From Shigella phage SSE1: 64,000 nucleotides of DNA. A program made the position numbers and the translations under genes. Below the pieces are notes generated by a model. That model was given only the letters and a program-made list of their open reading frames with translations, ran no database searches and was not told where the DNA came from. Within the stretch, counting starts at the first letter, position 1, and the number at the start of each line of letters is the position of its first letter. The stretch is taken from the sequence record MK639187; one strand, given 5' to 3'. This document shows, one piece after another, positions 5,532-56,419 of the stretch.

Positions 5532-5560
5532 GTTTACATCCTCAATAGATGTGTTAAGAT
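5532..5560 (+). promoter_or_regulatory. T4-type early promoter (GTTTAC-17-TAAGAT)
   Basis: Seen in sequence, upstream of ORF 5589. Confidence 0.6.
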
Positions 5561-5588
5561 TAAACCATCTACTATAGAGGAAAATAAA

Positions 5589-5771
5589 ATGACAATTGAA
5601 GATAAAGAAATTAAGGTCGACCAGTACTATTCTGTCAACGGTAGTGCAGTACAGATAACCAGAGTTTCAAGCCTGGATGTTTGGTACCGTTCGATCAAAT
5701 ATCCAGAAATTGGTGAAATGCTTTGTGTCCGTGGTATCTTCTGTTCAATTGCGAAGGAAATTAAGCCATGA
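5589..5771 (+). CDS. Hypothetical small protein
   Basis: ATG 5589 after GAGGA and an early promoter; ORF-track extension to 5427 would span the promoter. Confidence 0.5.
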   Translation: MTIEDKEIKVDQYYSVNGSAVQITRVSSLDVWYRSIKYPEIGEMLCVRGIFCSIAKEIKP

Positions 5772-6016
5772 TTAGTTTAGATTCAAAGAAAGTTGTTCTA
5801 ACTCTTAATGTAAACAACGAACGTCTGATATTCATTACCATTTCCGATTTGAACGTTGAAATTGCTAATGGCGTCCGTACTTATCAAACGTCTAAAACAC
5901 ACTGGGACTATATCCCAATGTTGACGCTTACTCAGCGTTTAGAATCAATCGGTCTTAAAGACCTTTCAGTAAGTGAAGTGAATTTTATCAAACGCATTGT
6001 ATCAATCAACCTCTGA
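5768..6016 (+). CDS. Hypothetical protein
   Basis: 82-aa ORF, start overlaps previous stop. Confidence 0.5.
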   Translation: MISLDSKKVVLTLNVNNERLIFITISDLNVEIANGVRTYQTSKTHWDYIPMLTLTQRLESIGLKDLSVSEVNFIKRIVSINL

Positions 6017-6023
6017 GGTACTT

Positions 6024-6317
6024 ATGGGTAAAACGTATCGTCGTAAAGATTTGAAAGTTCGTGATTACGACTATTTTGGTAAACGTAAAGCTCCTGACGG
6101 TGTTAGCCACAAAGACATGGTTGAAAACATTTTCCGCTCAGATAAATGGAAACGTATGAAAGGCGTTGATTCCGAAGTCAAGAACGAAATGAATCGACAA
6201 CTTCGCAAAGAAGTTCGTAAGTTGAAAAAAGATGTTTACAGTAAAGAAGATTATGATTATAATACTTCTCATACTGAAGCCAAACGTAAAGCTAACGAAT
6301 GTTATCGTTACAGTTGA
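6024..6317 (+). CDS. Hypothetical basic protein
   Basis: Internal ATG 6024 after GAGGT; Lys/Arg-rich. Confidence 0.5.
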   Translation: MGKTYRRKDLKVRDYDYFGKRKAPDGVSHKDMVENIFRSDKWKRMKGVDSEVKNEMNRQLRKEVRKLKKDVYSKEDYDYNTSHTEAKRKANECYRYS

Positions 6318-6324
6318 GGAAATT

Positions 6325-6459
6325 ATGAATATCAAACGAATGCTTTTTAAACAGGGATTATATACTTTAAATGCTAATCCAAAGGGTGATACAACTAAAT
6401 GGTCTGTAAATGACTGGATTAAGTTCATCGATGAAAATGGGGCGTGGAACACAAAATGA
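6325..6459 (+). CDS. Hypothetical small protein
   Basis: ATG 6325 after GAGGA. Confidence 0.4.
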   Translation: MNIKRMLFKQGLYTLNANPKGDTTKWSVNDWIKFIDENGAWNTK

Positions 6460-6656
6460 ATCCTGAAAATATTGTGTCATGGCAACTTCGTGAAGAACGC
6501 GCCGAATTCTTTGCCAATATGAAACTCAACGGTGTTGATGATGAAGACTTTTTACGTTGGTTCTGGATTTACAAATACAAAGAATGTCAACATGCTGTGC
6601 TATTGACTTGCGCAGCTATGTACGAAGGCTGGAAAGGCGCTAAAAAGTTCGGTTAA
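6456..6656 (+). CDS. Hypothetical protein
   Basis: ATGA start/stop overlap with previous ORF. Confidence 0.45.
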   Translation: MNPENIVSWQLREERAEFFANMKLNGVDDEDFLRWFWIYKYKECQHAVLLTCAAMYEGWKGAKKFG

Positions 6657-6658
6657 TA

Positions 6659-6697
6659 ATGTACAACGATAGGAAGACATGTTATTATCTTCCTATC
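6659..6697 (+). promoter_or_regulatory. Early promoter with -10 inside inverted repeat ATAGGAAGA/TCTTCCTAT (PeSL-like)
   Basis: ATGTAC...TATTAT flanked by 9-bp inverted repeat. Confidence 0.5.
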
Positions 6698-6719
6698 GTC
6701 TTAAAACGAGGAAAATATC

Positions 6720-6959
6720 ATGGCCCAAGAATTAGATTTTATCAAATTCAAAAAACACCTAGACGTTAAAATTGGGGATTCAATTGTTAGGATTGAGTAT
6801 GACATTTTAACAGATGCTATTACTGTTAGTTGTGACGGAAATAGTTTCAGCTTCGATACAACCGAAAACAAATACCCAATCTATAAAGGCATCTTTGATA
6901 TGGGTGTTGATATTACTCCACGTGATACAAATTACTTACTTTTCATGCTTAAAAAATAG
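6720..6959 (+). CDS. Hypothetical protein
   Basis: 79-aa ORF downstream of promoter cassette 6659-6697. Confidence 0.5.
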   Translation: MAQELDFIKFKKHLDVKIGDSIVRIEYDILTDAITVSCDGNSFSFDTTENKYPIYKGIFDMGVDITPRDTNYLLFMLKK

Positions 6960-6995
6960 TATATAAACTCTTGAGAGCAGAGTATAATTCTCTCA
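6958..6995 (+). promoter_or_regulatory. Promoter cassette copy AAACTCTTGAGAGCAGAGTATAAT (second copy at 51574)
   Basis: TATAAT 6983-6988 inside GAGAG/CTCTC stem; -35 region degenerate. Confidence 0.45.
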
Positions 6996-7025
6996 TTGGA
7001 TAATAAAATAACCGAGGAAAATAAT

Positions 7026-7358
7026 ATGTCTACTAAAATCAAAAACGTAGTTAATTCTTTCGCTTTCGATAAAGTTGTTGCTCTTCTGGAATCCGGCAAT
7101 ATTGTTACTCCTCAAGTTCTTGACGCATGGGAATTCCGTCTTTATGAAATCATGCAAAAACACGACCAAAAAATTGGACGTAATTCTATTCGTGAAATTC
7201 TAGTACAATATATTCTTTCTGAATTTGACGTTGCTGCATTTGGTGTTGAATCTAAAGCTTATCAGAAACATGAAATCTCTGAAAAGACTATCCGTCGTAT
7301 GAAAAATCAACGTAAGAAAAAATTCGTTGACCTGAAAATTGTTAAGGCGGTAAAATGA
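7026..7358 (+). CDS. Hypothetical protein
   Basis: ATG 7026 after GAGGA, downstream of promoter cassette 6958-6995. Confidence 0.5.
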   Translation: MSTKIKNVVNSFAFDKVVALLESGNIVTPQVLDAWEFRLYEIMQKHDQKIGRNSIREILVQYILSEFDVAAFGVESKAYQKHEISEKTIRRMKNQRKKKFVDLKIVKAVK

Positions 7359-7582: not shown

Positions 7583-7672
7583 AATTAACTCGAATCAGTA
7601 TAACTGAAGAAAAGTTTGGTGAATTTTAAGTCAACAACTTTATGAAAGTTATGTATCTTTGATAGTATCTCG

Positions 7673-7716: not shown

Positions 7717-7737
7717 GAATTGAGCTAAGAGGTACTT

Positions 7738-28309: not shown

Positions 28310-28339
28310 GTTTACATCTTCCTCTAGGCATGATATGAT
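28310..28339 (+). promoter_or_regulatory. T4-type early promoter (GTTTAC...TATGAT)
   Basis: Seen in sequence. Confidence 0.6.
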
Positions 28340-28368
28340 GAACTTACACCAACCAAGAGGAAAACATT

Positions 28369-28743
28369 ATGAATATGTCTCAAGCAATTTTTACTGCAAT
28401 CACCGAAAACACAACTGTTGAAGTAGTTTCTCCGCTGGCAACCTACGTTATTCTTGCTCCTAAAACTATTGTATCTCGTATGGAAAACACAGGCAAACGT
28501 ATCGTACAAATAGTTGGAGCTGGAAATCAAAAACTTGATTATCTACGAACCATCAAAGCTTATGAACATTTCCAACTCGAAAAAGGTTCTCCTATCCAGG
28601 TAGAACTCGTAAATGGTGATATCGTTCGAGCAATGTTCCATCATTTCTATGCATTGAATGACCCGTCTAAAGCGGTTCGTTTAATTGCATACGACGCAAA
28701 CCAAAACGAAATCAACGCAGATATATCTAAATTACGTTTTTAA
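28369..28743 (+). CDS. Hypothetical protein
   Basis: 124-aa ORF after early promoter 28310-28339. Confidence 0.5.
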   Translation: MNMSQAIFTAITENTTVEVVSPLATYVILAPKTIVSRMENTGKRIVQIVGAGNQKLDYLRTIKAYEHFQLEKGSPIQVELVNGDIVRAMFHHFYALNDPSKAVRLIAYDANQNEINADISKLRF

Positions 28744-28744
28744 G

Positions 28745-28793
28745 TTTACTTCTCCAGTAGTTGTGTTATTATAGACCTATCAACTACTGGAGA
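28745..28793 (+). promoter_or_regulatory. Early promoter with -10 inside 12-bp inverted repeat (PeSL-like)
   Basis: GTTTAC-17-TATTAT; CTCCAGTAGTTG/CAACTACTGGAG. Confidence 0.6.
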
Positions 28794-28798
28794 ACAAA

Positions 28799-29116
28799 AT
28801 GAAAACCATCGATTGTAAAGCAGAATTTAAGATTTTTTATCACGGTTCAAGTAGTTCAGCTAACATCGAAAACATGCTTTGTCCTCCTGAAGAAACAGGA
28901 GTTCTGTCTGAAACAGGACGTAAGAAAAACTTGGATCGTGTATTCTTTACCGAAGATATCGGTTTAGCAAAGATTTATGCAGGACGAGCAGCACGCTCTT
29001 ATGGAGGTGAACCACGTCTCTATCGAGTAATTTCTCCGGTAGATGTAGTTCAAATGAATAATACTAAAGGTGCTACAGTTTATCACGCTGAATGGGCATT
29101 TTGCGAGGAAATATGA
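28799..29116 (+). CDS. Hypothetical protein with YHGS motif
   Basis: 105-aa ORF after promoter cassette 28745-28793. Confidence 0.5.
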   Translation: MKTIDCKAEFKIFYHGSSSSANIENMLCPPEETGVLSETGRKKNLDRVFFTEDIGLAKIYAGRAARSYGGEPRLYRVISPVDVVQMNNTKGATVYHAEWAFCEEI

Positions 29117-29301: not shown

Positions 29302-29314
29302 TTTTAAAATAACT

Positions 29315-29344
29315 GTTTACAAGCATCGCATACTGTGTTACTAT
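29315..29344 (+). promoter_or_regulatory. T4-type early promoter (GTTTAC...TACTAT)
   Basis: Seen in sequence. Confidence 0.55.
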
Positions 29345-29372
29345 CTTTCTATCAACTACAGAGGAAATTGAA

Positions 29373-29741
29373 ATGAAAAAATTAATCGCTTTAGCAATGG
29401 TATTTGGATTAACCGGATGTGGTGCCCATGGCTTTATCCCTAATAACGTTGGCCAACTGATTTACAATCCGAATGTTAAACAGTATGACCAACCTAAAGT
29501 TGAAGTGGAAGACCCGGTTACTGTAGGTAATCGAATGATTCAAGCTGATGCTCATGCTCAACGTTATCGTGATTCTGATACTGTAGCTGTGTCAAAAGAA
29601 CAGCGCGTTAAAGAACATTGTCTACAGGCTACTGAAATCGCATTCATTCGCTATATTGAAACAACTGGTAAAGAGCCTACCCAGAAACAAATCGCGAATA
29701 ACTACGTCCAGTGTATTGAACGTTTAAACAAATTTAATTAA
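29373..29741 (+). CDS. Putative lipoprotein
   Basis: Signal peptide with lipobox LTGC. Confidence 0.55.
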   Translation: MKKLIALAMVFGLTGCGAHGFIPNNVGQLIYNPNVKQYDQPKVEVEDPVTVGNRMIQADAHAQRYRDSDTVAVSKEQRVKEHCLQATEIAFIRYIETTGKEPTQKQIANNYVQCIERLNKFN

Positions 29742-29744: not shown

Positions 29745-29774
29745 GTTTACACCAAAGTTAAAACAAGATATTAT
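29745..29774 (+). promoter_or_regulatory. T4-type early promoter (GTTTAC...TATTAT)
   Basis: Seen in sequence. Confidence 0.55.
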
Positions 29775-29802
29775 AAACATAACAAATTAAGAGGAAATTA
29801 AC

Positions 29803-30051
29803 ATGGAATTATTCGTAGCTAGTTCAGTAGCAGTTTTAATCGCAGGTATTGGTTCAATCATCATTTACATGTTGCCTTGGGTAATCGCACTTATTCGTGG
29901 CACAAAAAGCACAACAGCAATCTTCTTTATATCTTTACTCTTTAACTGGACGATGATTGGTTGGATCGGAACTTTAATTTGGTCTATCGTTGCCGAAAAG
30001 AAATCTGCTCAGCAGCCTCAACAAGTAATTATTATTCGCGAAAAAGAATAA
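29803..30051 (+). CDS. imm: Superinfection immunity protein (Imm-like)
   Basis: 82 aa, two TM segments, FNWTMIGWIGTLIWS motif. Confidence 0.65.
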   Translation: MELFVASSVAVLIAGIGSIIIYMLPWVIALIRGTKSTTAIFFISLLFNWTMIGWIGTLIWSIVAEKKSAQQPQQVIIIREKE

Positions 30052-30055: not shown

Positions 30056-30092
30056 GTTTACATTATAGATGGACTCTATAGTATAGTAGTCC
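30056..30092 (+). promoter_or_regulatory. Early promoter with GGACT/AGTCC stem (PeSL-like)
   Basis: GTTTAC-17-TAGTAT. Confidence 0.5.
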
Positions 30093-30116
30093 TATCAAAT
30101 CAACTAAGGAGTTAAA

Positions 30117-30410
30117 ATGAAAAAGTTATCATTGGCAGCAATCTTACTTGCAGTATCATGCGCACCAGCTCCAGTTACGGCAGGTTATGATAAAGACCTC
30201 TGTGAGTGGTCAATGACTGCAAATCAAGAAGATGTTGAACAACAAATCTTCTCTGATATCATGAACATCACTAAACGAGACCGTCCTAATATGGTTAATA
30301 AAGTTGTTGAACAACTTAAGTCTGGTGGTATCATGCAGTACAATTATGTTTTGTATTGTGACCCTAATTTCGATAACAAAGATATCGTAACCGAAATCAC
30401 AGGTGAATAA
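30117..30410 (+). CDS. Secreted/lipoprotein, possibly spackle-like
   Basis: 97 aa, signal peptide with AVSC lipobox. Confidence 0.5.
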   Translation: MKKLSLAAILLAVSCAPAPVTAGYDKDLCEWSMTANQEDVEQQIFSDIMNITKRDRPNMVNKVVEQLKSGGIMQYNYVLYCDPNFDNKDIVTEITGE

Positions 30411-33033: not shown

Positions 33034-33091
33034 ACGCTTTATAAAATTAATGTTAGAATTAACTCTCTTATACTGAATTGAAAGGATATAT

Positions 33092-34546: not shown

Positions 34547-34554
34547 ATAATTTA

Positions 34555-34582
34555 AGGAATCCTTCGGGATTCCTTTTTTTTT
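34555..34582 (+). terminator. Intrinsic terminator after soc (AGGAATCC-TTCG-GGATTCCT, T9)
   Basis: Seen in sequence. Confidence 0.75.
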
Positions 34583-34591: not shown

Positions 34592-34621
34592 GTTTACAAC
34601 CACTAAAAACTGTGTTAAGAT
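34592..34621 (+). promoter_or_regulatory. T4-type early promoter (GTTTAC...TAAGAT)
   Basis: Seen in sequence. Confidence 0.55.
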
Positions 34622-34649
34622 ATTATTACTTACTCAAGAGGAGAACAAT

Positions 34650-34877
34650 ATGTTAAATCGTTGGATTAAACCTAATAACACATTAGGTGCTTTGATTGCT
34701 CAAGAAGTTTCGTTGAAATACGGTCTTGGATATTATGATGATGTAGTCGTACACTCATTCATGATGGATGGCGAAGACGTCAAATTTAACGCCGAAATCC
34801 GTTGGGACGATGGCGGTGTTCGTTTTGTTCGAGGAACAATTAATGCTTACGATGCTGAAGAAGTTGTTTGCTGTTAA
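34650..34877 (+). CDS. Hypothetical protein
   Basis: ATG 34650 after GAGGAGA and an early promoter. Confidence 0.5.
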   Translation: MLNRWIKPNNTLGALIAQEVSLKYGLGYYDDVVVHSFMMDGEDVKFNAEIRWDDGGVRFVRGTINAYDAEEVVCC

Positions 34878-35900: not shown

Positions 35901-36061
35901 AAGAGAAATTTAAAGAGAAATTCTTACTAGAAATCAAGGAAAAAGACTTTGAGACATGGTATCGAATGGTGAAAGGGTTGACATTGCTTTTTAAAGCATC
36001 ATTATTCATGTTAGAACAACCAGGTCCTGATGGACCTTTAGTAGGAAAGCTTAAAAAGTAG
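35897..36061 (+). CDS. Hypothetical small protein
   Basis: 54-aa ORF read by hand. Confidence 0.3.
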   Translation: MKEKFKEKFLLEIKEKDFETWYRMVKGLTLLFKASLFMLEQPGPDGPLVGKLKK

Positions 36062-36089
36062 TTTACATTCCCTCCTCTCGTGTTATGAT
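36061..36089 (+). promoter_or_regulatory. T4-type early promoter (GTTTAC-17-TATGAT)
   Basis: Seen in sequence. Confidence 0.55.
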
Positions 36090-36189
36090 AGGCTTATCTT
36101 TAAATGGAGGTCTATCATGACATGTCAATCTGAACTTCAAGAACGCGAATACCTAACAAAATCATTCATTTGAAAATGTTGAATTTTTA

Positions 36190-36219
36190 GTGTACAAACT
36201 CTACTGACGATGATATTAT
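36190..36219 (+). promoter_or_regulatory. Early promoter (GTGTAC...TATTAT) upstream of Mod-like gene
   Basis: Seen in sequence. Confidence 0.5.
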
Positions 36220-36247
36220 ACTTTTATCAACCACAGGAGAAACCTAA

Positions 36248-36856
36248 ATGTTTATGCCGTATAACGAGTGTGAAATTGAAGAAATGGTTCGTCGTGCTCA
36301 AAACCCCGAATATCAAGATGTATTGCAGTACGAAATTGATAGTCAATTCAGCGACATTGAACAAAGTGTACTGTGGCAATGTATGGAAAACAAGCCAGAC
36401 TGTATTCAACAGGAGTTAAGTTCAATCGTTCGTAGAAATTGGACGTCTTCTGTTCCTGAGACAATGTATCGTGGAATCTCTAAGAAAACTATGGCCACAC
36501 TCGATGATAAAGGCGTTGGTAGTATTATTAAATTTGACAGAGTAATGAGCTTTAGTCCGGTGTTCGGTGTAGCACGTAACTTTGCTTCGTATAATTTTTA
36601 CGGAACATTTAATATGTTCTGCATCAAAGATGCACCATTTGCTTTCAACTTCCGTGAACATATGCTTAACATGATTCTGGCTGCACCATCTTGTGAGTTC
36701 AATGGAGCTTTCCCTGAAGCGACAAGACGGTCTAATGCTAGACTTATATCTGACGAATGTGAATTTATGCTCCCTATAGGGACTACACTGCGTGTAGATT
36801 CTATTATTCAAGATGGACGTTATACAATCTGGAATCTGTCTATTGTTGGTTACTGA
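36248..36856 (+). CDS. ADP-ribosyltransferase, ModA/ModB-like (R-S-E class)
   Basis: 202 aa; Arg in MYRGISKK, SFS, and ECEF (E-x-E) in the expected order. Confidence 0.55.
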   Translation: MFMPYNECEIEEMVRRAQNPEYQDVLQYEIDSQFSDIEQSVLWQCMENKPDCIQQELSSIVRRNWTSSVPETMYRGISKKTMATLDDKGVGSIIKFDRVMSFSPVFGVARNFASYNFYGTFNMFCIKDAPFAFNFREHMLNMILAAPSCEFNGAFPEATRRSNARLISDECEFMLPIGTTLRVDSIIQDGRYTIWNLSIVGY

Positions 36857-36929: not shown

Positions 36930-36958
36930 GTGTACACTACCTGAGGGCATGATATTAT
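36930..36958 (+). promoter_or_regulatory. Early promoter (GTGTAC-17-TATTAT)
   Basis: Seen in sequence. Confidence 0.5.
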
Positions 36959-37007
36959 AGACCTATCAGCTAAATGGCCTAACGTCCGTAAGACAGAGGA
37001 AAATATT

Positions 37008-37754
37008 ATGTTATCAAATAATAAAATTAACAAAATCAATCGTCGTCTTGACCACACCAGAGCTTCTGCGAAGAGACGCTCTAAGGATTTTAACTTAGAC
37101 TTTAATTACCTTAAAAACATTCTTGATCAAAAGGTCTGCGCTTACTCAGGTGAATCTTTCAATAACTCTGTTGAAGGTGAGAAATTATCCTTAGAACGTT
37201 TTAATAACGATATCGGCTACATTAAAGGTAATGTTATCCCGGTTAAGAAAAAATATAACACGGCTCGTTCTGATTTAACATTAGAAGAACTTATTGAAAA
37301 ACGTGATGCCATTGCAAGACGTATCGCTAATCCTTCTGCCCGTAAAGTAGAGAAACTTAATCTCGACGAGAAGAAATGGGCCCAAATTAAAAAGGTTTAT
37401 GGTACTATTTTAAAAATCCGAGCAAAACGTGAAAATCGTGTTAAGCATATGGCGAACATGATGAAAAATCAACCTTTATCTAACGAATCTAAACTTAGAA
37501 TTGTTGCTTTGAAAGCACGCATTAATGGCTCACATCAAGCAGAAGGTCATGAACTTACTAAACTCAACGTTCTTCTTAAAGGCTCTGACTGGAAAACTAA
37601 AACTAAATTAACTGACGCTGAATCGCTTTTCGATACATATGATAAAGTTATCCAAGGTCTGCAACGTTTTGAAAAGATTGGTTTCATTGGTAAATTAAAA
37701 TTGAAACGTGGCTTACCACTTAGCGCATCATTATTCCAACTGATTAAAGGTTAA
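37008..37754 (+). CDS. srd: Srd-like protein (by position upstream of dda.1/dda)
   Basis: 248-aa basic protein; assignment by synteny. Confidence 0.4.
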   Translation: MLSNNKINKINRRLDHTRASAKRRSKDFNLDFNYLKNILDQKVCAYSGESFNNSVEGEKLSLERFNNDIGYIKGNVIPVKKKYNTARSDLTLEELIEKRDAIARRIANPSARKVEKLNLDEKKWAQIKKVYGTILKIRAKRENRVKHMANMMKNQPLSNESKLRIVALKARINGSHQAEGHELTKLNVLLKGSDWKTKTKLTDAESLFDTYDKVIQGLQRFEKIGFIGKLKLKRGLPLSASLFQLIKG

Positions 37755-40069: not shown

Positions 40070-40099
40070 GTTTACAACCAAGGATGGTTGGAGTATAAT
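40070..40099 (+). promoter_or_regulatory. Early promoter with spacer hairpin CAACCA/TGGTTG
   Basis: GTTTAC...TATAAT. Confidence 0.55.
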
Positions 40100-40130
40100 C
40101 TTTCTATCTTAACCAAACAGGAAAAACATT

Positions 40131-40625
40131 ATGAATATCAATACTATGGCTACTTACATCCTGAAAGACGAAAAACAAATCAACTGGTACGGTGCTTCAG
40201 TGCGAGCTTATGAAAAGTTTTGTGAAATTTTAGGTGCCACTCAAGGTAATAGTTTCACTATTGTTAACTTCATTAAACAAGTTGAAGGCCCTTGGTTATT
40301 CTTAGAAATTAAAAATTCATACGGTACAATTTCTACTACTGCCATCCCAAGCACCGACTTTGAACTGTTGATTGAAGAAGCACCTGTTAAAGATGGTCTC
40401 CACTTTGATATGGATATCGTTTGTATGTACGGTACTCTGATTAAGCCTATTGAGCCTACTGATTTATTGTGTAAATATGTTTCAATTCGACGCCCATTCG
40501 ATGGTCCAGTAAATGGATGGGTAACTGACCAGTGGATTGAAGATGGGGTTGAACTTCTGAACGTTGTTCATGCCGGTGATTTTAGTGTGGTTCCACGTAG
40601 TGCAGTAGTTAATATTCTAAATTAA
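40131..40625 (+). CDS. Paralogue family protein 1 (C-terminal DQWxEDG...YNIVFxGxFxVV)
   Basis: 164 aa, own early promoter. Confidence 0.55.
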   Translation: MNINTMATYILKDEKQINWYGASVRAYEKFCEILGATQGNSFTIVNFIKQVEGPWLFLEIKNSYGTISTTAIPSTDFELLIEEAPVKDGLHFDMDIVCMYGTLIKPIEPTDLLCKYVSIRRPFDGPVNGWVTDQWIEDGVELLNVVHAGDFSVVPRSAVVNILN

Positions 40626-40627: not shown

Positions 40628-40657
40628 TTGTACATCCAAGGATGGATGGAGTATAAT
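40628..40657 (+). promoter_or_regulatory. Early promoter, duplicate of the 40070 cassette
   Basis: TTGTAC...TATAAT with CATCCA/TGGATG. Confidence 0.55.
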
Positions 40658-40686
40658 GAATTCAATTTAACAAAGAGAGAAAAATT

Positions 40687-41142
40687 ATGATTACTATTGG
40701 TGAAATTAAGCGTGTATCAACTGCATCCCGGTCTAAAGCCGCAGGTCGTCTGGTTGAAGTGGTAGGACTTCGCACAAATGGCATGGGACGCATTAAAGAA
40801 GTTAAAGTTCGAATCATTCCTAGTTTTGGACGCCAGGATACTCAGCACGCTTACGTAAGTCCTAAATTCTTGGAAACTCCTGTGAGCGCTCATTTTGCTT
40901 CTACTGAACCTAATGCACAGTTCAAATGGGCCTTGTGTAAAGGTGTTGAATTCCAGACTGATAAAGAATTTGACTTCATCGATGAATACGGTTATCCAAG
41001 CAAAACTGATATTATGTGTGGCTTCATTAGTGACCAATGGGTTGAAGATGGTGAAAAGTTATACAATATCGTATTCTTAGGTGACTTCCGAGTTGTTAAA
41101 GAATCTGAAATCACTCGTTATGTGTCTCCTCGTAAAGCTTAA
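40687..41142 (+). CDS. Paralogue family protein 2
   Basis: 151 aa, own duplicated promoter. Confidence 0.55.
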   Translation: MITIGEIKRVSTASRSKAAGRLVEVVGLRTNGMGRIKEVKVRIIPSFGRQDTQHAYVSPKFLETPVSAHFASTEPNAQFKWALCKGVEFQTDKEFDFIDEYGYPSKTDIMCGFISDQWVEDGEKLYNIVFLGDFRVVKESEITRYVSPRKA

Positions 41143-41575: not shown

Positions 41576-41626
41576 GTTTACTTCTCCTCCGGTTTTGATA
41601 TTATAACCATATCAACCAGAGGAGAA
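41576..41626 (+). promoter_or_regulatory. Early promoter with TCTCCTC/GAGGAGA inverted repeat spanning -10 and the downstream SD
   Basis: GTTTAC-17-TATTAT. Confidence 0.5.
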
Positions 41627-41630
41627 TAAT

Positions 41631-42155
41631 ATGTTAGTTTACCGCGTAGAACGTAGTTTTTGTACTCAACGTGAATCATTACCAGGAATTGCTATCGAAG
41701 ATGGTAAAGCCGTCAGAATTTGGGAAACCTCTTGGAATAAAGAACCTCGTTCGCCGTATGGTTGGTCGGGCACCGACAACTCTGAAGAAACATGGGAGTT
41801 CCTTGATAAGCATGGAATACTCTCAGGTAACTTCTACCATCACGGCGACAACTATAATGTCCCTAATCGTCCTACAGTAAATGAAGACAAACTCCTTGAA
41901 CAAAATATCTTAAGATACTATAGAATTGAGCACACATTTGAATTGAGTGAAGATTGGGCTCAAGGGTTCTATTTTGGATTTGAAAGTGTTGACGCGGTTT
42001 ATGCATGGTTTGATGACCAGGTGGATGTTGAACTCTTGAAAGCTAAAGGATACTACATCGCGGTCTATGAAGCACCTGATTTCATCCTCGGAAGTTGTCA
42101 ATTAATGTTTAGACGTTCATTGGCAGAACAAGTTGATTTTATTTTGCTAAAATGA
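41631..42155 (+). CDS. Hypothetical protein
   Basis: 174-aa ORF after promoter 41576-41604. Confidence 0.5.
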   Translation: MLVYRVERSFCTQRESLPGIAIEDGKAVRIWETSWNKEPRSPYGWSGTDNSEETWEFLDKHGILSGNFYHHGDNYNVPNRPTVNEDKLLEQNILRYYRIEHTFELSEDWAQGFYFGFESVDAVYAWFDDQVDVELLKAKGYYIAVYEAPDFILGSCQLMFRRSLAEQVDFILLK

Positions 42156-42184
42156 TGTACAACAACTATGGTCTATGATACTAT
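42155..42184 (+). promoter_or_regulatory. Early promoter (ATGTAC...TACTAT)
   Basis: Seen in sequence. Confidence 0.45.
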
Positions 42185-42212
42185 AGACCTATCAAAACAA
42201 GAGGAGAATATT

Positions 42213-42440
42213 ATGAAACGTCAAATCATTAAAAACGTAACTACTGATTCAAACATCGATGAGTTTGAAGATGTTCTGTTTAATCCTGATTTAGTTGTTG
42301 TACAGAAAAACTGGACCGAATTTTTATGCTACACTGAAGTGGTTTACGTTTACGAAAAACTCGGCGATGAAATGCCTATCTATGGTATCTTCCGTGAAAT
42401 CACTGAAAACGGTACAACTTATTGGAAGGAAACTTACTAA
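42213..42440 (+). CDS. Hypothetical protein
   Basis: ATG 42213 after GAGGAGA. Confidence 0.45.
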
Positions 42441-43034: not shown

Positions 43035-43460
43035 ATGGCTTTTAAAGGTTTTGAAGTTGGTAAGAAATATCGTATTATCAAAGGACAGGAAGATAATTTC
43101 TTGAGAATTCTTAATACGACTGGTAAGCGTCTTAATACTAATCTGCATACTACTTTATTGTCCAAAGATTTTATTGTGGAAGAGATGATTGGTTACGGCG
43201 TTTCGGTTATTGCTGTAGAAGCCGTAGGCGATTATGGCCGAACTATTCATAGTATGCAAGGTGATATTCTGATTTATGGTGCAGAATTTAAATTCTTTGA
43301 AGAAGTTCCGGAACCAGATACAGCTGTCGATTTCAAAAAAGGCTCTATAGAATTTGTTGATGGTTCGGTGATCGTATCAGGCGATGTGGTCATTACAGTT
43401 AAAAGTGAACAAGGGCGTTTAGCTGCAATTGATGCACTTCAGAAAATTAAATTTAAATAA
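43035..43460 (+). CDS. Hypothetical protein
   Basis: 141-aa ORF followed by hairpin terminator. Confidence 0.5.
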   Translation: MAFKGFEVGKKYRIIKGQEDNFLRILNTTGKRLNTNLHTTLLSKDFIVEEMIGYGVSVIAVEAVGDYGRTIHSMQGDILIYGAEFKFFEEVPEPDTAVDFKKGSIEFVDGSVIVSGDVVITVKSEQGRLAAIDALQKIKFK

Positions 43461-43478
43461 GGGCTTCGGCCCTTTTTG
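43461..43478 (+). terminator. Intrinsic terminator upstream of gp39 (GGGC-TTCG-GCCC, T5)
   Basis: Seen in sequence. Confidence 0.6.
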
Positions 43479-43523: not shown

Positions 43524-45341
43524 ATGATTAAAAATGAAATTAAGGTATTGTCAGATGTAGAACATATTAAGAAACGAAGTGGCATGTATATTGGTTCTTC
43601 AGCCAAAGAAGCCCACGAGCGTTTTTTGTTTGGTAAATATCAACAAGTTGAATATGTTCCTGGTCTGGTTAAATTAATCGATGAGATTATTGACAACTCG
43701 GTTGATGAAGCTATTCGTACATCATTTAAGTTTGCAAATAAAATTGATGTGCAAATTAAAAATAATCAAGTTTCAGTGGAAGATAACGGACGTGGTATTC
43801 CTCAAGGTTTAGTTACCGACCAAACAGGTGAACAAATTCCTGGGCCTGTAGCAGCCTGGACTATTCCAAAGGCTGGTGGTAACTTTGGCGATGACTCTGA
43901 ACGCAAGACTGGTGGTATGAACGGCGTCGGGAGTAGTTTAACTAATATCTTCTCTACGTTGTTTACAGGCATCACGTCAGATGGCGAAAATGAAATCACT
44001 GTTAACTGTTCAAACGGAATGGAAAACAAATCATGGTCTTCTAAGAAATCTAAAGGTAAAGGCACTAAAGTAATCTTCACTCCTGATTTCACTTCATTTG
44101 AAGAGCATAATTTATCTCAAATTTATTTAGATATTACTTTAGACCGACTTCAAACATTGGCAGTCGTTTATCCTGACATCAAGTTCACATTTAATGGTAA
44201 AAAGGTTGATGGTAATTTTAAACGATTTGCTAAACAATTTGGTGAAGATAACATCATTCAAGAAAATGATAAAGTCTCTATAGCATTCACAACATCACCA
44301 GATGGCTTCCGTCATTTAACTTATGTGAATAACATCCATACTAAAAATGGTGGTCATCATGTTGAATGCGTAATGGATGATATCTGCGAACATCTTTTGC
44401 CAGGTATTAAAAAGAAATATAAGGGTATTGAAGTCACTAAAGCTCGTGTTAAAGAATGTCTCACAATGTTGATGTTTATTAGAGACATGAGCAATATGCG
44501 TTTTGATTCTCAGACTAAAGAACGTTTAACGTCAACGTATGGTGATATTCGTAATCATATCCAATTAGATGCTAAGAAAATTGCTCAGGCACTTCTTAAA
44601 AACGAAGCCTTGATTATGCCTATTGTTGAAGCAGCATTAGCTCGTAAATTGGCGGCAGAAAAGGCTGCGGAAACTAAAGCAGCTAAAAAGGCAACTAAAG
44701 CTAAGGTTCATAAGCATATTAAAGCTAACCAATGTGGTAAAGACGCAGATACGACATTGTTCTTAACAGAAGGTGATTCGGCAATTGGTTATCTCATTGA
44801 TGTTCGTGACCGTGAACTACACGGCGGATTCCCATTACGTGGTAAGGTGATGAATAGCTGGGGTATGTCGTATGCTGATATGATGAAGAACAAAGAGCTC
44901 TTTGATATCTGTGCTATCACAGGTCTTATTCTTGGTGAAAAGGCAGAGAATACGAACTATCGTAATATTGCAATTATGACCGATGCCGATCATGATGGTC
45001 TTGGAAGTATTTATCCGGCTTTGCTTGCTTTCTTTAGTAATTGGCCCGAATTGTTCGAACAAGGACGTATTCGCTTTGTTAAAACGCCTGTAATTATTGC
45101 ACAAATTGGCAAAACTCAAAAATGGTTTTATACTGTAGCTGAGTATGAAGAAGTTAAAGATACACTGCCTAAGCATAGTATTCGATACATCAAGGGATTG
45201 GGCTCCCTTGAAAAGTCAGAATATCGTGAAATGATTCAGAATCCTGTGTACGACGTAGTTAAACTTCCTGAAAATTGGAAAGAACTCTTTGAAATGTTGT
45301 TGGGTGATGATTCAGAACTTCGTAAAGAATGGATGTCCTAA
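43524..45341 (+). CDS. 39: DNA topoisomerase II large subunit (GyrB-like), gp39 and gp60 equivalents in one ORF
   Basis: 605 aa; GHKL ATPase N-terminus and TOPRIM C-terminus in a single frame. Confidence 0.9.
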   Translation: MIKNEIKVLSDVEHIKKRSGMYIGSSAKEAHERFLFGKYQQVEYVPGLVKLIDEIIDNSVDEAIRTSFKFANKIDVQIKNNQVSVEDNGRGIPQGLVTDQTGEQIPGPVAAWTIPKAGGNFGDDSERKTGGMNGVGSSLTNIFSTLFTGITSDGENEITVNCSNGMENKSWSSKKSKGKGTKVIFTPDFTSFEEHNLSQIYLDITLDRLQTLAVVYPDIKFTFNGKKVDGNFKRFAKQFGEDNIIQENDKVSIAFTTSPDGFRHLTYVNNIHTKNGGHHVECVMDDICEHLLPGIKKKYKGIEVTKARVKECLTMLMFIRDMSNMRFDSQTKERLTSTYGDIRNHIQLDAKKIAQALLKNEALIMPIVEAALARKLAAEKAAETKAAKKATKAKVHKHIKANQCGKDADTTLFLTEGDSAIGYLIDVRDRELHGGFPLRGKVMNSWGMSYADMMKNKELFDICAITGLILGEKAENTNYRNIAIMTDADHDGLGSIYPALLAFFSNWPELFEQGRIRFVKTPVIIAQIGKTQKWFYTVAEYEEVKDTLPKHSIRYIKGLGSLEKSEYREMIQNPVYDVVKLPENWKELFEMLLGDDSELRKEWMS

Positions 45342-45364
45342 GCTCCTTCGGGAGCTTCATTTTA
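45341..45364 (+). terminator. UUCG hairpin after gp39 (AGCTCC-TTCG-GGAGCT)
   Basis: Weak T-run. Confidence 0.4.
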
Positions 45365-49965: not shown

Positions 49966-49988
49966 GGGGACTTCGGTCCCCTTTTTTC
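49966..49988 (+). terminator. Intrinsic terminator after rIIB (GGGGAC-TTCG-GTCCCC, T6)
   Basis: Seen in sequence. Confidence 0.75.
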
Positions 49989-50794: not shown

Positions 50795-50830
50795 GTTTAC
50801 AACTAAGTAGGACTATGATATAGTAGTCCT
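50795..50830 (+). promoter_or_regulatory. Early promoter with AGGACT/AGTCCT stem (PeSL-like)
   Basis: GTTTAC-17-ATATAG. Confidence 0.5.
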
Positions 50831-50850
50831 ATCTAAAAGAGGATAACATT

Positions 50851-51114
50851 ATGAAATTTAAATTTTTCTACGCAAAACATAAAGTAACAGGCGAATTTGT
50901 TTCAATGTACAACACCGCCGATGACGAAGGGATGATTTATACTCATTTAGGTCTATCTCATTGGGACTCAGACGTGCCTTATATGTCATCTGAAGCCGAA
51001 ATAACTCGTTTAGTTAACGGACATATGAACGACCATTTTAGTGTTATTCTTTCTAAAGACCTTAAAGAGGTTATCAACAAAGGATATATGGAACTCGCGG
51101 AAGTTGAGATATGA
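50851..51114 (+). CDS. Hypothetical protein
   Basis: 87-aa ORF after promoter cassette 50795-50830. Confidence 0.5.
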   Translation: MKFKFFYAKHKVTGEFVSMYNTADDEGMIYTHLGLSHWDSDVPYMSSEAEITRLVNGHMNDHFSVILSKDLKEVINKGYMELAEVEI

Positions 51115-51306: not shown

Positions 51307-51344
51307 GTTTACATCAAGGTAGGATTATGGTATAGTAGTCCTAC
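51307..51344 (+). promoter_or_regulatory. Early promoter with GTAGGA/TCCTAC stem (PeSL-like)
   Basis: GTTTAC...TATAGT. Confidence 0.5.
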
Positions 51345-51364
51345 TGAAACATGAGGAACACAAA

Positions 51365-51565
51365 ATGGCTAAGCTTTTTAAAGATGTTGAAATTGGTGAA
51401 AAATTTGTCCTGAATAATGGTCAGCAGCTTATTCGTGTAGCTTCTATCGCCGGACAAACTCATAACTGTATCGCCCCAACGTGTTGGACTCGATTCTTTA
51501 TTGAAGATGACACTGAATGTTTAACTGTTGAAGAGCTTTTTGAACGTTCTGATATAGCCGAATAA
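51365..51565 (+). CDS. Hypothetical protein
   Basis: 66-aa ORF after promoter cassette 51307-51344. Confidence 0.5.
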   Translation: MAKLFKDVEIGEKFVLNNGQQLIRVASIAGQTHNCIAPTCWTRFFIEDDTECLTVEELFERSDIAE

Positions 51566-51567: not shown

Positions 51568-51604
51568 TTGTACAAACTCTTGAGAGCAGAGTATAATGCT
51601 CTCA
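51568..51604 (+). promoter_or_regulatory. Early promoter cassette upstream of ndd (TTGTAC...TATAAT in TGAGAGC/GCTCTCA stem)
   Basis: 24 nt identical to the 6965-6988 copy. Confidence 0.55.
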
Positions 51605-51641
51605 TGGATTACAAAAACATTAATCAATTGAGGAAATTAGC

Positions 51642-52088
51642 ATGTCCAAATATTTAACTCGTAAAGACCTTCTGGCAGTTGGCGGTGAAGTTGTTGCAGT
51701 AGTTCGTAACGGCGAATACGGTTCTGAAGTTTCTAAAGAGTTTCGTTCTCGTGAAGGTTTTTACTTCTTTGTTAAAGGTTCATCTGATTGGCGACAAGTA
51801 GCAGCACGATTCTTTGTAGGACGTCAACGTTCTAAACAAGGGTTGGATGCAATTCTTTCTCACATTCGTCAAGGCCGTTCGCAACTAGCCCGTACTATGG
51901 GCACTAACAATATTGAATATGATGTAATCTTTGTTGCAGCTAAGAACATGAAACCACTGACCACTGGTTACGGTAAAGGACAATTGGCTCTGGCATTCAC
52001 TCGCAACCATACATCAGAATATCAAACACTCACTGAAATGAACCGTCTTCTGGCAGATAATTTCAAATTCATTCTGCAGAGTTACTAA
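51642..52088 (+). CDS. ndd: Nucleoid disruption protein Ndd
   Basis: 148 aa; [11 protein letters not shown] and [20 protein letters not shown] recognised as Ndd-like. Confidence 0.85.
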
Positions 52089-53876: not shown

Positions 53877-53905
53877 GTTTACATGTGCTTCAAACATGGT
53901 ATTAT
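53877..53905 (+). promoter_or_regulatory. Early promoter upstream of motA (GTTTAC-17-TATTAT)
   Basis: Seen in sequence. Confidence 0.55.
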
Positions 53906-53944
53906 AGACCTATCAAAACAAAACAACCAAATTGGAGAAATAAA

Positions 53945-54577
53945 ATGTCTAAAGTTACTTACATCATCAAAGCTTCTGAAAACGCTCTGAATGAAAAAAC
54001 TGCCGCGATAATGGTTTATATCATTAAGAACAACTTCACCACTGCTGCCAATGTCCGTGAAGCTCTGGAAGCAGAATACAATGCATCAGTTGTTAACTCT
54101 AACATTGGTGTATTGATTAAGAAAGGTTTAGTCGAAAAATCCGGTGATGGACTTATAGCAACAGGCGAAGCAATGGATATTATCCAAAAAGCTGCAGACC
54201 TCTTTGCCCAAGAAAATGCTCCAGAACTTCTTCAGAAACGTAACACTAGAAAAGCACGTGGAGTTACTCCTGAAATGCATGAATTAGCAAACTTTGTTTT
54301 TGAAAATATTAAAGATAAAGTTGAAGTTAAAGAAATTGGTGAAAACCGTAGTAACTTAGAAGTTCGATTCGCTAAACGAGTTCTAGGCATTCGCCAAATT
54401 GAAATTCGACGAGATGGCGCTCTTAGAATCTTTGCATATAACATGTCAGAAACTGAATCAAAGCTGTTTACTTCTCTTGAAAATGATGTTAAGATTAAGA
54501 TAGGTGGTAAATATACTTACATTGACTTCCCTAACGTGTCCAAAGAAATCATTACTCTTGTAACTAACGTACTGTGA
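53945..54577 (+). CDS. motA: Middle-transcription activator MotA
   Basis: Internal ATG 53945; 210 aa recognised as T4 MotA-like. Confidence 0.9.
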   Translation: MSKVTYIIKASENALNEKTAAIMVYIIKNNFTTAANVREALEAEYNASVVNSNIGVLIKKGLVEKSGDGLIATGEAMDIIQKAADLFAQENAPELLQKRNTRKARGVTPEMHELANFVFENIKDKVEVKEIGENRSNLEVRFAKRVLGIRQIEIRRDGALRIFAYNMSETESKLFTSLENDVKIKIGGKYTYIDFPNVSKEIITLVTNVL

Positions 54578-54587
54578 GGAATACATA

Positions 54588-54932
54588 ATGAATAAGCTGA
54601 ATATTATTAACGAACTTCGTAAATGCGCAGAACCTACTCAGGAAGGATGGGATATTTGGTACCACGGGGCTTATTTAGGGACAATTGTAAAGGTTAAAGC
54701 TGGGTTATATTTAATTATTCGCGAAAATTCCGAATTCCCTAATGGAGTAGCTCCTGGTGGTCTTCGTAAAAACTACATGGCAGCGATCAGTTCATTTGTT
54801 GATGCGGCTTACGAAATCTATAAAGAAGATTATAAAGAATATCAGCAGTCACAACCGGTTATTCGTTCGATTGGTGTAAATAAACAAGCACAAAAATCTA
54901 TTTGGCAACGTATTAAGGAATGGTTTAAATGA
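54588..54932 (+). CDS. Hypothetical protein
   Basis: 114-aa ORF. Confidence 0.5.
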
Positions 54933-55390
54933 AATCATTTAAAGAACGTTTAGAGCTATTAGATTTGGCCTTGTCTCGTGAGACTCCTGAAAGTCTAGCA
55001 GAAAAATTCCAGTCCTACGGTTATAATTATTCTGCTGATGATATAATGAATGAAGTTCCTGAAATCTGTTGGCAAACGTGTTATTGGAATAATGACCAAA
55101 AAGTTCAACGTGTTATAGTATGTGCAGCTAATAGGTTTAAATTGAAGAGCGGTGGAACTCTGGTTATTCCTGGAGTTCGTCATTACTCTAAAGATATGGC
55201 TGAAGTACTTGATATAGTTGGTCATCAATTAGTCTCGCAACAAGTTTGTGGTGACGACCAAGGCTTTATCGACCAATACTCTAATTACTGGACTCGTGAA
55301 GAAGCAATGATTATTGCAACATACGCTGGACAGGTACGTATTGAACGTGGCGGAAGCGAGAAAGAACTTTATTCAGAGGACCTTTATTAA
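54929..55390 (+). CDS. Hypothetical protein
   Basis: 153-aa ORF. Confidence 0.5.
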
Positions 55391-55671
55391 TGAATATTAA
55401 ACAACTCCAGAAAGATGCTATTGAAACACGTATCCAAGATATCAAACGTCTTAATCATATGATGGAAGAAAACTATGGTATGTACGCTAATCAGCCTGGT
55501 TGGGATGCTTTAGATCATCCTTATTTGGTTAATTTATGTAAAGGTGATACGTTAGCAATTATTCGTGATGGGTTAAAACCTTTCTTGCGTGACATGTATA
55601 TTAAAATTAACGAAGAAATTATTAGCTCGTTGCAATATCAATTAAGGAAATTAGATGATGAGAATAATTGA
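55390..55671 (+). CDS. Hypothetical protein
   Basis: 93-aa ORF. Confidence 0.5.
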   Translation: MNIKQLQKDAIETRIQDIKRLNHMMEENYGMYANQPGWDALDHPYLVNLCKGDTLAIIRDGLKPFLRDMYIKINEEIISSLQYQLRKLDDENN

Positions 55672-55882
55672 TTCTAAAGCAGATTATTTTAATTCTGTTA
55701 ATGATAAGAATAAAGCTTTAATTCGCCACTTTATTACTGAGATGGGTTATACTAACTCTAAAGATTTGAAAGAGCACATTATCGAATGTTCTGTGGCTAA
55801 AAAGTTTTCTTTTACCGATAAATGCTTAAATGAGGTTATAAATCATTATGAACAATCTTGTAGCAAAACACGATTTCAATAA
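55655..55882 (+). CDS. Hypothetical protein
   Basis: 75-aa ORF. Confidence 0.45.
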   Translation: MMRIIDSKADYFNSVNDKNKALIRHFITEMGYTNSKDLKEHIIECSVAKKFSFTDKCLNEVINHYEQSCSKTRFQ

Positions 55883-55956
55883 GGCTTCTGTCCATAAGGA
55901 CAAGAAGAAATCAGAACTTCAATCTAAACGCAAACAAAAACATAAGGGTAAAGACT

Positions 55957-56256
55957 ATGTTTACTAAAATCAAAGAAAATCCTGCCACTGAACTTGTTAT
56001 TCGTTGTGAAGAACTTGCAGAGCTTTATCAGGTTAACAGAGAAGTGTGTCGTAGTGTTATCGTAGATATGGAAGATGAAGTCTGTTCTCGTATTCCTTTT
56101 AGTGTCGATTTCAATCACATGAAGCCTGGTGAAATCACTATCGTCTTTGGTTCTGACTATACTGAAGAACGGGCTCTTAATGTCCTAGAGTATGAAATGT
56201 CGTTCTTTGACATACAGGACTACATTGATAGTTATAAGGAACAATATGAGTCATAA
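55957..56256 (+). CDS. Hypothetical acidic protein (arn-region position)
   Basis: 99-aa ORF between motA and asiA. Confidence 0.45.
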   Translation: MFTKIKENPATELVIRCEELAELYQVNREVCRSVIVDMEDEVCSRIPFSVDFNHMKPGEITIVFGSDYTEERALNVLEYEMSFFDIQDYIDSYKEQYES

Positions 56257-56407
56257 TCTTCAGAACGTAGTAGAGGCCGAACGTGAGCGTGAGGCTTTAG
56301 TCTATAATGAACTATTAGTTCAATTCTTGGTCTTACACTCGTATGAACAGGAAGACTACACCAATTACGTTAAAAGCGTAGAAAAAGCCGTTTACAATCA
56401 ACACTGA
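56246..56407 (+). CDS. Hypothetical small protein
   Basis: ATG 56246, 53 aa. Confidence 0.35.
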   Translation: MSHNLQNVVEAEREREALVYNELLVQFLVLHSYEQEDYTNYVKSVEKAVYNQH

Positions 56408-56419
56408 TAATGGTACTAT
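56390..56419 (+). promoter_or_regulatory. Early promoter upstream of asiA (GTTTAC...TACTAT)
   Basis: Seen in sequence. Confidence 0.55.

Follow-up and report, generated by a model that had tools for sequence, protein, structure and literature searches.

Predicted early promoters with embedded stems form cassettes in the early region of an RB69-like Shigella phage

The early region and its promoters

The 64,000-nucleotide (nt) stretch of Shigella phage SSE1 analyzed here (sequence record MK639187; hereafter the window) constitutes the early region of a T4-type coliphage of the RB69-like kind (Mosigvirus), and matches phages of the RB69 type, HX01, HY126, SHSML-52-1 and RB69 among them, at 94-98% identity. 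Its subject is a family of 22 predicted early promoters, many of which carry an inverted repeat around the -10 hexamer; a promoter together with the sequence up to the next start codon is called a cassette below. The early-transcription strand is the + strand, from position 1 to about 56.7 kb, and the genes on it follow the order 55.x genes, 47, 46, 45, 44, 62, regA, 43, uvsX, 40, 41, imm, sp, 61, 56, soc, modA, srd, dda, dexA, motB family, cef, 39, rIIA, rIIB, denB, ndd, 52, motA and asiA; 3′ of asiA, holin and tail-fibre genes lie on the - strand. The genes behind the 22 promoters mostly encode products of 44-250 amino acids (aa), and include imm.1, imm, sp, mrh.2, modA, srd, the motB family, cef, ndd, motA, asiA and open reading frames (ORFs) without a Pfam match. 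Six of the ten cassette-downstream proteins tested gave no Pfam match, no Rfam family reached the gathering threshold, and the RefSeq record of T4 has no annotated promoter features.

The promoters were located by two scans. A mismatch scan for GTTTAC-N16-18-TATAAT, with at least 11 of 12 matches and with A at -11 and T at -7 obligatory, gave 12 sites on the + strand and one on the - strand, and the number expected from 30 dinucleotide shuffles was 0.93 ± 0.85. A two-block position weight matrix (PWM), iterated from intergenic hits until convergence, gave 22 sites on the + strand and one on the - strand at a score of at least 14. Because the PWM was trained on the sites themselves, only the mismatch scan provides an independent statistic. 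More than 20 T4-type early promoters had been proposed between 5532 and 56419 in the original prediction, and this number and range were reproduced, the first site starting at 5532 and the last ending at 56419. A generic sigma-70 scan with the TTGACA consensus was also tried and showed no enrichment (72 versus 66), indicating that the signal is specific to the GTTTAC-type motif.

The extended consensus from the PWM is aaaacaGTTTACa-N17/18-TAttATagaCCTATCAa, in which the -10 is written TAttAT. The shared layout consists of an A-rich UP-like tract, a GTTTAC-type -35, a spacer of 17-18 nt, often TG, a TAnnnT -10 and a conserved start region CCTATCA; the third position of the -35 is T, not G as in TTGACA, which is a trait of T4-type early promoters. 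The predicted +1 is located 20-26 nt before an ATG preceded by a Shine-Dalgarno sequence (SD) in 15 of the 22 cassettes. In order along the window, the predicted +1 sites are 5567, 6270, 6695, 6995, 28346, 28779, 29351, 29781, 30091, 34628, 36096, 36226, 36965, 40106, 40664, 41611, 42191, 50831, 51343, 51604, 53912 and 56426. In 14 cassettes, the preceding gene ends in an AT-rich tract, its stop codon no more than about 18 nt from the -35, so that the intergenic gap of 46-76 nt is cassette throughout. The sites cluster at 5.5-7.0, 28.3-30.1, 34.6-37, 40-42.2 and 50.8-56.4 kb, which are variable regions with small or ORFan genes, and the PWM scan found none in the replication-gene core (7-28.3 kb) or in the 39-rIIB block. 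The intergenic, strand-specific placement before SD-preceded ATGs agrees with the earlier suggestion that the promoters stand ahead of small accessory genes.

All 22 sites have one-to-one orthologs, at a constant offset of 14 nt, among the early promoters that Nolan et al. 2006 predicted for RB69 (Pe:6863, 7443, 8387, 8947, 12088, 12829, 13466, 14950, 19020, 19331, 19761, 20537, 20971, 42515, 42816, 43242, 43945, 160217, 162713, 165022, 165283 and 165795), and T4 has counterparts of window promoters as well. A weaker, 23rd promoter-like site (GTTGAC-N18-TATGAT, PWM score 11.5) is found outside the range 5532-56419, at 840-869 inside coding sequence, and is the ortholog of RB69 Pe:48639 and of T4 site 47452.

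Inverted repeats and selection for pairing

When the longest perfect inverted repeat flanking or overlapping the -10 was determined for each cassette and compared with 200 shuffles, repeats were more frequent than expected by chance. Repeats of at least 6 bp were present in 12 of the 22 cassettes (6.3 in shuffles, 1 of 200 reaching 12), of at least 7 bp in eight (1.9 ± 1.3, none of 200 reaching eight) and of at least 8 bp in five (0.5, none of 200 reaching five), and the excess of repeat-bearing cassettes over chance was about six. In addition, when the segment between -36 and the ATG was folded and scored against shuffles of the same cassette, the mean z was -1.44, with eight cassettes below -2. 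The mean z was about -0.5 for cassettes behind a terminator or a long gap and about -1.7 for the others, although these are few cases (n = 5 and n = 16). That many of the promoters carry an inverted repeat had been noticed before, and all five examples given then contain what was described: 12 bp at 6659, 14 bp at 28745 (also covering the SD), 8 bp at 50795, and 6 bp perfect, or about 11 bp with G.U, at 51307. In the fifth, 40070, the repeat is a spacer hairpin of only 5 bp, which by itself does not exceed chance.

Three classes of stem can be distinguished. In class A (6659, 6959, 30056, 42155, 50795, 51307 and 51568) the stem surrounds the -10, and its 3′ arm runs to about +0 to +4. In class B (5532, 28310, 28744, 36061 and 41576) the 5′ arm comes right behind the -35, the 3′ arm is the SD region and the arms reach +15, well beyond the promoter, which favours an action in RNA. 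Class C is a 5-bp spacer hairpin in the paralogs 40070 and 40628, where AACCA/TGGTT is replaced by the compensatory ATCCA/TGGAT. In every class the 5′ arm lies upstream of the predicted start, its first base falling between -29 and -21 relative to the +1, and therefore only read-through RNA can fold into the hairpin. A 5-bp repeat is already built into the promoter consensus, with TGATA at -16..-12 (the extended -10) and TATCA at -1..+4 (the start site), and can pass for a cassette-specific stem.

To control for this shared consensus, the 5′ half of one cassette was joined to the 3′ half of another. Real cassettes folded at -10.9 kcal/mol and chimeras at -8.4 ± 0.5 kcal/mol, and none of 5000 permutations reached the real value; the same permutation gave 0 of 5000 in RB69 and p = 0.008 in T4 (n = 11).

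A second line of evidence came from one promoter framework, AAACTCTT-N6-AGAGTATAAT, which carries different stems in different places: T4 P-motB reads aaactcttGGGACCagagTATAATGGTCCC and window cassette 51568 reads aaactcttGAGAGCagagTATAATGCTCTC. A search of viral contigs gave 38 matches, 27 of them unique. Where the framework was preceded by a -35, N6 was always the reverse complement of the 6 nt after TATAAT, in at least five stem versions, and in the five matches without a -35 only 2-5 positions could pair. Among 14 distinct cassettes 84 of 84 cells paired, with changes on both sides in three of the six pairs, and the covariation score was 0.54 versus 0.26 ± 0.04 in shuffles (none of 500 reaching it); slid controls paired in 39-57% of cells. 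All eight non-Watson-Crick cells were G.U on the sense strand and none was A.C, over only about five independent events, and this direction of wobble points to the sense RNA as the pairing molecule.

Pairing was also kept among orthologs of single cassettes. For 28744, the hairpin is retained in 50 contigs while its sequence and placement vary, with a compensatory anti-SD change (ATCTCC/GGAGAT) in contigs L015 and L017 and -10-enclosing GGGAC/GTCCC stems in L039-L054. The RB69 ortholog of 6959 has CGAGAG/CTCTCG, a compensatory T-A to C-G change, the T4 ortholog of 41576 (motB.2) retains a TTCCTC/GAGGA pairing, and a 13-bp repeat surrounds the -10 of the T4 cef promoter. Judged from this cassette-specific complementarity, the compensatory changes and the G.U-only wobble, the stems are under selection for pairing. 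Protein-seeded retrieval of the motB.2, ndd and cef loci returned only near-identical contigs, which hold no covariation information.

These results bear on one alternative, in which the repeats simply follow from the promoter consensus, or arise by chance in AT-rich sequence, and are without a function of their own. The consensus-derived TGATA/TATCA is the sole repeat in 36190, 36930 and 56390, and 5-bp repeats are common in shuffles (15.9 of 22); for such weak cases this explanation stands. It is contradicted for the approximately 12 cassettes with repeats of at least 6 bp by the excess of repeats of 7 bp or more, by the chimera permutation, and by the compensatory changes and complete pairing over five stem versions of one framework, and as an account of the family it is highly improbable.

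Table 1. The 22 cassettes, all on the + strand. Spans begin with the first base of the -35 hexamer; z is the folding score against the cassette's own shuffles; duplex values (kcal/mol) are for the promoter-only segment with the translation initiation region (TIR), and accessibility is that of the TIR in read-through RNA versus RNA with the upstream segment shuffled.
Span	Promoter and ATG	Downstream gene	Repeat or pairing	z	Other features
5532..5591	-35 GTTTAC 5532; -10 TAAGAT 5555; predicted +1 5567; ATG 5589	60-aa ORF, gene 55.x region	TAGATG 5546-5551 / CATCTA 5566-5571; additionally spacer CCTC with SD GAGG	-3.1	terminator-like hairpin 5421-5439 upstream; RB69 Pe:43945
6234..6327	perfect consensus GTTTAC-N18-TATAAT, within 55.5-like ORF	44-aa 55.4-like ORF at 6325	no -10 repeat		arrangement kept in T4 (41261) and RB69 (Pe:43242); only other perfect-consensus site is 40070
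6659..6722	-35 ATGTAC; -10 TATTAT 6683; ATG 6720	79-aa ORF	12-bp perfect, 6666-6677 / 6688-6699, -10 enclosed; 3′ arm ends at +4	-3.5	RB69 Pe:42816
6959..7028	AAACTCTT-N6-AGAGTATAAT framework; ATG 7026	55.2-like	TGAGAG 6972-6977 / CTCTCA 6990-6995 around -10		
28310..28371	ATG 28369	124-aa ORF, RB69 ORF041c-like	spacer TTCCTCT 28319-28325 with SD AGAGGAA 28356-28362		after gene 41, hairpin GGAGACTTCGGTCTCC ahead; duplex -12.1; left crossover of 415-nt indel
28744..28801	ATG 28799	105-aa ORF, ORF040c-like	14-bp, TTCTCCAGTAGTTG 28750-28763 / CAACTACTGGAGAA 28781-28794; 5′ arm in spacer, 3′ arm over SD	-5.7	upstream stop codon abuts -35; duplex -18.8; accessibility 0.18 vs 0.44
29315..29375		imm.1	no significant repeat	+1.6	
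29745..29805		imm	no repeat	+1.1	
30056..30119		sp (spackle)	GGACT / AGTCC around -10 region	-1.2	
34592..34652		mrh.2-like ORF	no embedded repeat		canonical terminator 34554-34575 (AAGGAATCCTTCGGGATTCCTT + T7) directly upstream
36061..36119		modB, 18-codon remnant	spacer CCCTCCTCT complementary to SD GGAGG		duplex -13.3; accessibility 0.14 vs 0.42
36190..36250	-35 GTGTAC	modA	only consensus-derived 5-bp TGATA/TATCA (36211-36229)		
36930..37010	-35 GTGTAC; 43-nt leader	srd	only consensus-derived (36950-36968)		
40070..40133	perfect consensus	motB.1-like	5-bp spacer hairpin AACCA/TGGTT		
40628..40689	-35 TTGTAC	motB	spacer hairpin ATCCA/TGGAT, compensatory vs 40070		paralog of 40070
41576..41633	ATG 41631	motB.2	spacer TTCTCCTC 41582-41589 with SD GAGGAGAA 41619-41626	-5.7	duplex -16.4
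42155..42215	-35 ATGTAC	cef	GGTCTAT 42170-42176 / ATAGACC 42183-42189 overlapping -10		
50795..50853	-10 TATAGT; ATG 50851	87-aa ORF	TAGGACTA 50808-50815 / TAGTCCTA 50824-50831; -10 partly in 3′ arm	-2.1	
51307..51367	ATG 51365	66-aa ORF	GTAGGATTA / TAGTCCTAC around -10, one G.U pair included	-3.3	
51568..51644	-35 TTGTAC; AAACTCTT-N6-AGAGTATAAT framework	ndd	TGAGAGCA 51581-51588 / TGCTCTCA 51597-51604 enclosing -10		
53877..53947	top PWM score	motA	no core repeat		TIR predicted masked in read-through RNA; accessibility 0.12 vs 0.47
56390..56456		asiA (Pfam AsiA)	only consensus-derived (56405-56429)		

What the stems may do

The papers on promoter early stem-loop (PeSL) cassettes proposed that the stems are terminators or attenuators, which would stop transcription from upstream, let it restart and thus insulate neighbouring early genes. 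The stem of RB49 PeSL211/210 cut lacZ expression comparably to rrnB T1 (Arbiol et al. 2010, PMC2839356), and some orthologous cassettes (contigs L014, L018 and L008-L017) have a true terminator hairpin with a T-run that encloses or abuts the -35. In the window, GC-rich hairpins are located just upstream of cassettes 28310, 34592, 5532 and probably 53877, and canonical terminators with a GC stem and a T-run are found at 34554-34575 (directly upstream of P34592), 43459-43474, 45340-45357, 49966-49981 and 5421-5439. The promoter-embedded stems, however, have no T-run (0-4 T in the next 8 nt), and none was flagged by a terminator scan of the + strand, though real terminators in the same regions were detected. 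They are also AT-richer than these real terminators, and termination leaves unexplained why the 3′ arms of class B coincide with the SD. We therefore regard termination by the embedded stems as rather unlikely.

Among these orthologous cassettes, those of L014 and L018/L019 (at about 620-700, upstream of the match) have a terminator in which the loop is the -35 hexamer (GGGGC-TTACA-GCCCC-TTTTT or GGGGTGTACACCCC-TTTTT) and TATAAT follows 18 nt on. This is a real promoter-terminator composite, unlike the window stems; in L008-L017 the terminator abuts the -35.

For part of the family, the pairing partner in read-through RNA is predicted to be the SD. The duplex between the promoter-only segment (-32 to -1) and the TIR was stronger in cis (-7.1 kcal/mol) than in chimeras (-5.8 ± 0.4 kcal/mol, p ~ 0.001), the effect being driven by 28744, 41576, 36061 and 28310. 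The ensemble accessibility of the TIR was 0.44 in read-through RNA and 0.64 in promoter-initiated RNA. For 28744, 36061, 36930 and 53877, it was 0.12-0.28 in read-through RNA versus 0.42-0.51 with the upstream segment shuffled, and strong masking by this test was confined to these four and 40628. The SD is predicted to be paired in the long transcript for 28310, 28744, 36061, 41576 and partly 5532, but not for the other cassettes. In 28744, 36061 and 41576, the 5′ arm starts 0-10 nt past the upstream stop codon, so that a ribosome finishing there could unwind it; for these three, the outcome may be translational coupling instead of silencing. Masking of the SD, as far as folding can tell, is real for a subset and does not explain the family.

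The repeats might act in DNA instead, where cruciform or hairpin extrusion would tune promoter opening or create hot spots for recombination nucleases (endo VII, gp46/47) and thereby drive modular shuffling, RNA folding being incidental. Most of the stems are perfect Watson-Crick palindromes that fold equally well in both strands in the window, an indel bounded by cassettes exists (see below), and crossovers of RB49 mini-circles were mapped in a stem loop. Yet the -10 is in the loop of some cassettes and in the arm of others, and some arms reach the SD; this unfixed position of the stem relative to -35, -10 and +1 argues against a defined DNA geometry. The wobble pairs of the covarying framework are G.U on the sense strand only, and the crossover that we observed is located in SD microhomology and outside the stems. 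For cruciform extrusion, 6-8 bp is a short stem. An action in DNA thus appears improbable, more so than termination.

Comparison of the window with five relatives yielded about seven indels. Only one is cleanly cassette-to-cassette, two end within about 10-35 nt of a cassette and four are far from any. The clean case is a 415-nt unit at 28373-28789, consisting of an ORF041c-like gene and one cassette, which is absent in phage 348Ecol098PP. At the junction there (contig L059, 1864-1953), the two flanking cassettes are joined into a chimera whose crossover falls in their SD microhomology (...CCAAGAGGA|GAACAAAATG), and IMG/VR contigs L020-L023 have the same arrangement. This is an unambiguous natural case in which crossover between two cassettes added or removed one gene. 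Elsewhere, gene 61.4 (about 200 nt) is missing relative to RB69, HY126 and SHSML-52-1, with the right breakpoint at 29293-29305, 10-22 nt upstream of the -35 of P29315. The modB gene (36117-36173) has a 503-nt internal deletion (breakpoint 36156-36160) relative to RB69, SHSML-52-1, mobillu and 348Ecol098PP, which HY126 shares. These indels are consistent with cassette-mediated exchange, in which single genes would be gained and lost by crossover at the ends that cassettes share. They are too few, though, to establish enrichment, and viable indels are expected in intergenic DNA anyway.

An insertion of 643 nt at 33086-33729 is absent from all five relatives and lies 7-13 nt upstream of the gene 56 start. 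Its ORF at 33092-34264 contains a NUMOD3 motif (homing-endonuclease DNA-binding) and continues in frame without a stop into gene 56 (C-terminal dUTPase_2 match). The insertion probably represents a mobile endonuclease gene that is fused to gene 56 or overlaps it.

Taken together, the window probably contains 22 composite early-gene cassettes of PeSL type whose stems act on read-through RNA. The promoters are predicted to be very strong UP/-35/(TG)/-10 promoters that unmodified host sigma-70 RNA polymerase would read straight after infection; transcription would start at the A of CCTATCA and yield a 20-26-nt leader with a GAGG/GGAG SD before a small accessory or takeover gene. Since a cassette usually fills the gap between genes, polymerases from upstream promoters would transcribe through it. 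In about 12 cassettes with a selected repeat, the 5′ arm is in the promoter spacer, upstream of the start; read-through RNA would fold and RNA from the cassette's own promoter would not, because only the former holds both arms. About five of them have the SD region as their 3′ arm; on read-through RNA the downstream gene would then be masked from translation, or depend on ribosomes that terminate just upstream, and it would be open on RNA from the cassette promoter. About seven have a stem that surrounds the -10 and stops at the start site, with the SD free, and there the intercistronic hairpin would be an attenuator or a decay barrier. The effect of the stems may be transcription attenuation, translation masking or RNA stabilisation.

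Several results weigh against this interpretation. About eight of the 22 cassettes have no meaningful repeat and are plain promoters, with nothing past the consensus 5-bp repeat. The promoter sites are predictions in both RB69 and this phage. Masking compared with shuffled upstream sequence is weak over the family (mean z = -0.56, p = 0.04), TIR accessibility in cis did not differ significantly from that in chimeras (p = 0.22), and the class-A cassettes 6659 and 42155 keep the SD more open than chance; the chimera test was not significant because the SDs are alike and any anti-SD run masks any SD. For the two former reasons, SD masking was dropped as an explanation for the whole family. Sense and antisense strands fold alike in the window (p = 0.1 against chimeras; in T4 the sense strand is weakly better, p = 0.03), which leaves room for an action in DNA. 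Among the five close relatives, core-arm substitutions (0.021 versus 0.043, p = 0.27) were too rare to reveal a constraint, with one compensatory and two disruptive changes; over all pairs of the minimum free energy structures there was no substitution depletion, and G.U (14) was about as frequent as A.C (15). Finally, a strong drop in downstream lacZ was measured for one RB49 stem, although that stem is GC-rich, unlike those of the window (PMC2839356).

More tentatively, and rather doubtful as a general rule, the stems of T-even early promoters could be RNA switches keyed to transcript origin and not terminators, with the SD hidden in a subset (28310, 28744, 36061, 41576 and the T4 motB.2 ortholog). 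If so, a subset of takeover genes would be translated only from their own immediate-early transcripts or when coupled to an upstream ribosome. The stems suggest a testable link between where an early transcript starts and whether the gene is translated.

Comparison with known systems

Much of this organization is known: predictions of the RB69 promoters date from 2006, and the combination of promoter and stem-loop in a cassette was reported in 2010 and 2014. A PeSL is defined by an upstream stop in an AT-rich tract, a promoter, a stem in one of five positions, which include between -35 and -10 and overlapping the -10, and an SD with ATG (Arbiol et al. 2010, PMC2839356). The description was extended to PST/T4, with the consensus TTTACW-N17-TAYWAT, and to nt-1/KVP40 (Comeau et al. 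2014, PMC4122927), so that the published sets are RB49/phi1, PST/T4 and nt-1/KVP40; neither paper mentions RB69-type phages, translation or SD pairing. Nolan et al. 2006 (PMC1524935, Additional file 3) list the RB69 early promoters as coordinates, and the words 'stem-loop' and 'hairpin' occur there 0 times. RB69 and T4 early promoters have the same consensus as the window, with GTTTAC, an A-rich upstream tract and a C-rich -3 to -1, and the window phage is a 94-98% relative of RB69 that is several indels apart. What is added here is the documentation of PeSL-type cassettes in the RB69 lineage with quantitative evidence of selection on the stem.

The likeness to PeSLs, which the original prediction had drawn for plastic regions of T4-type genomes, holds for the architecture: the window has a stop in an AT-rich tract, a strong early promoter, a stem at -35/-10, and an SD with ATG at the 3′ end, and a stem, taken as a repeat of at least 6 bp, in about 12 of the 22. 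The cassettes cluster in variable regions by small ORFs with none in the replication core, and one indel of an ORF plus a cassette is bounded by two cassettes. The likeness is qualified in that only this one of the approximately seven indels is clean and the stems lack the U-run that a terminator label implies. RB49 stems are of the form Gn-loop-Cn and those of PST are depicted immediately ahead of the promoter, whereas those of the window are AT-richer; about five extend to the SD, which is undescribed in the PeSL papers, and the crossover is in the SD and not in the stem. Compared with intrinsic terminators, in which a GC-rich stem, frequently with a TTCG loop, is followed by a U-run, the embedded stems share only the intergenic hairpin. 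The label 'promoter-terminator' is therefore questioned, because the stems are without terminator tails and a subset pairs with the ribosome-binding site.

Our literature searches found no description of an SD-sequestering hairpin around early promoters. The closest parallel is T4 e, soc, 49 and I-TevI, where long transcripts hide the SD/AUG and a promoter in or after the 5′ arm gives a shorter, translatable RNA (PMC3014915). In the same manner, a subset of the window cassettes is predicted to pair the SD, and the transcript from their own promoter would lack the 5′ arm. If the reading of the stems as switches were true, the logic of these late genes would apply to early promoters too, and the function assigned to PeSLs would need revision. 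The internal promoter of the T4 genes is, however, a late one (TATAAATA) and delays expression, whereas the window promoter is early, its spacer encodes the 5′ arm, and the predicted outcome would be restricted or coupled expression early on. Because their promoters are early, the window cassettes are an analogue of the e/soc/49/I-TevI type and not a member of it.

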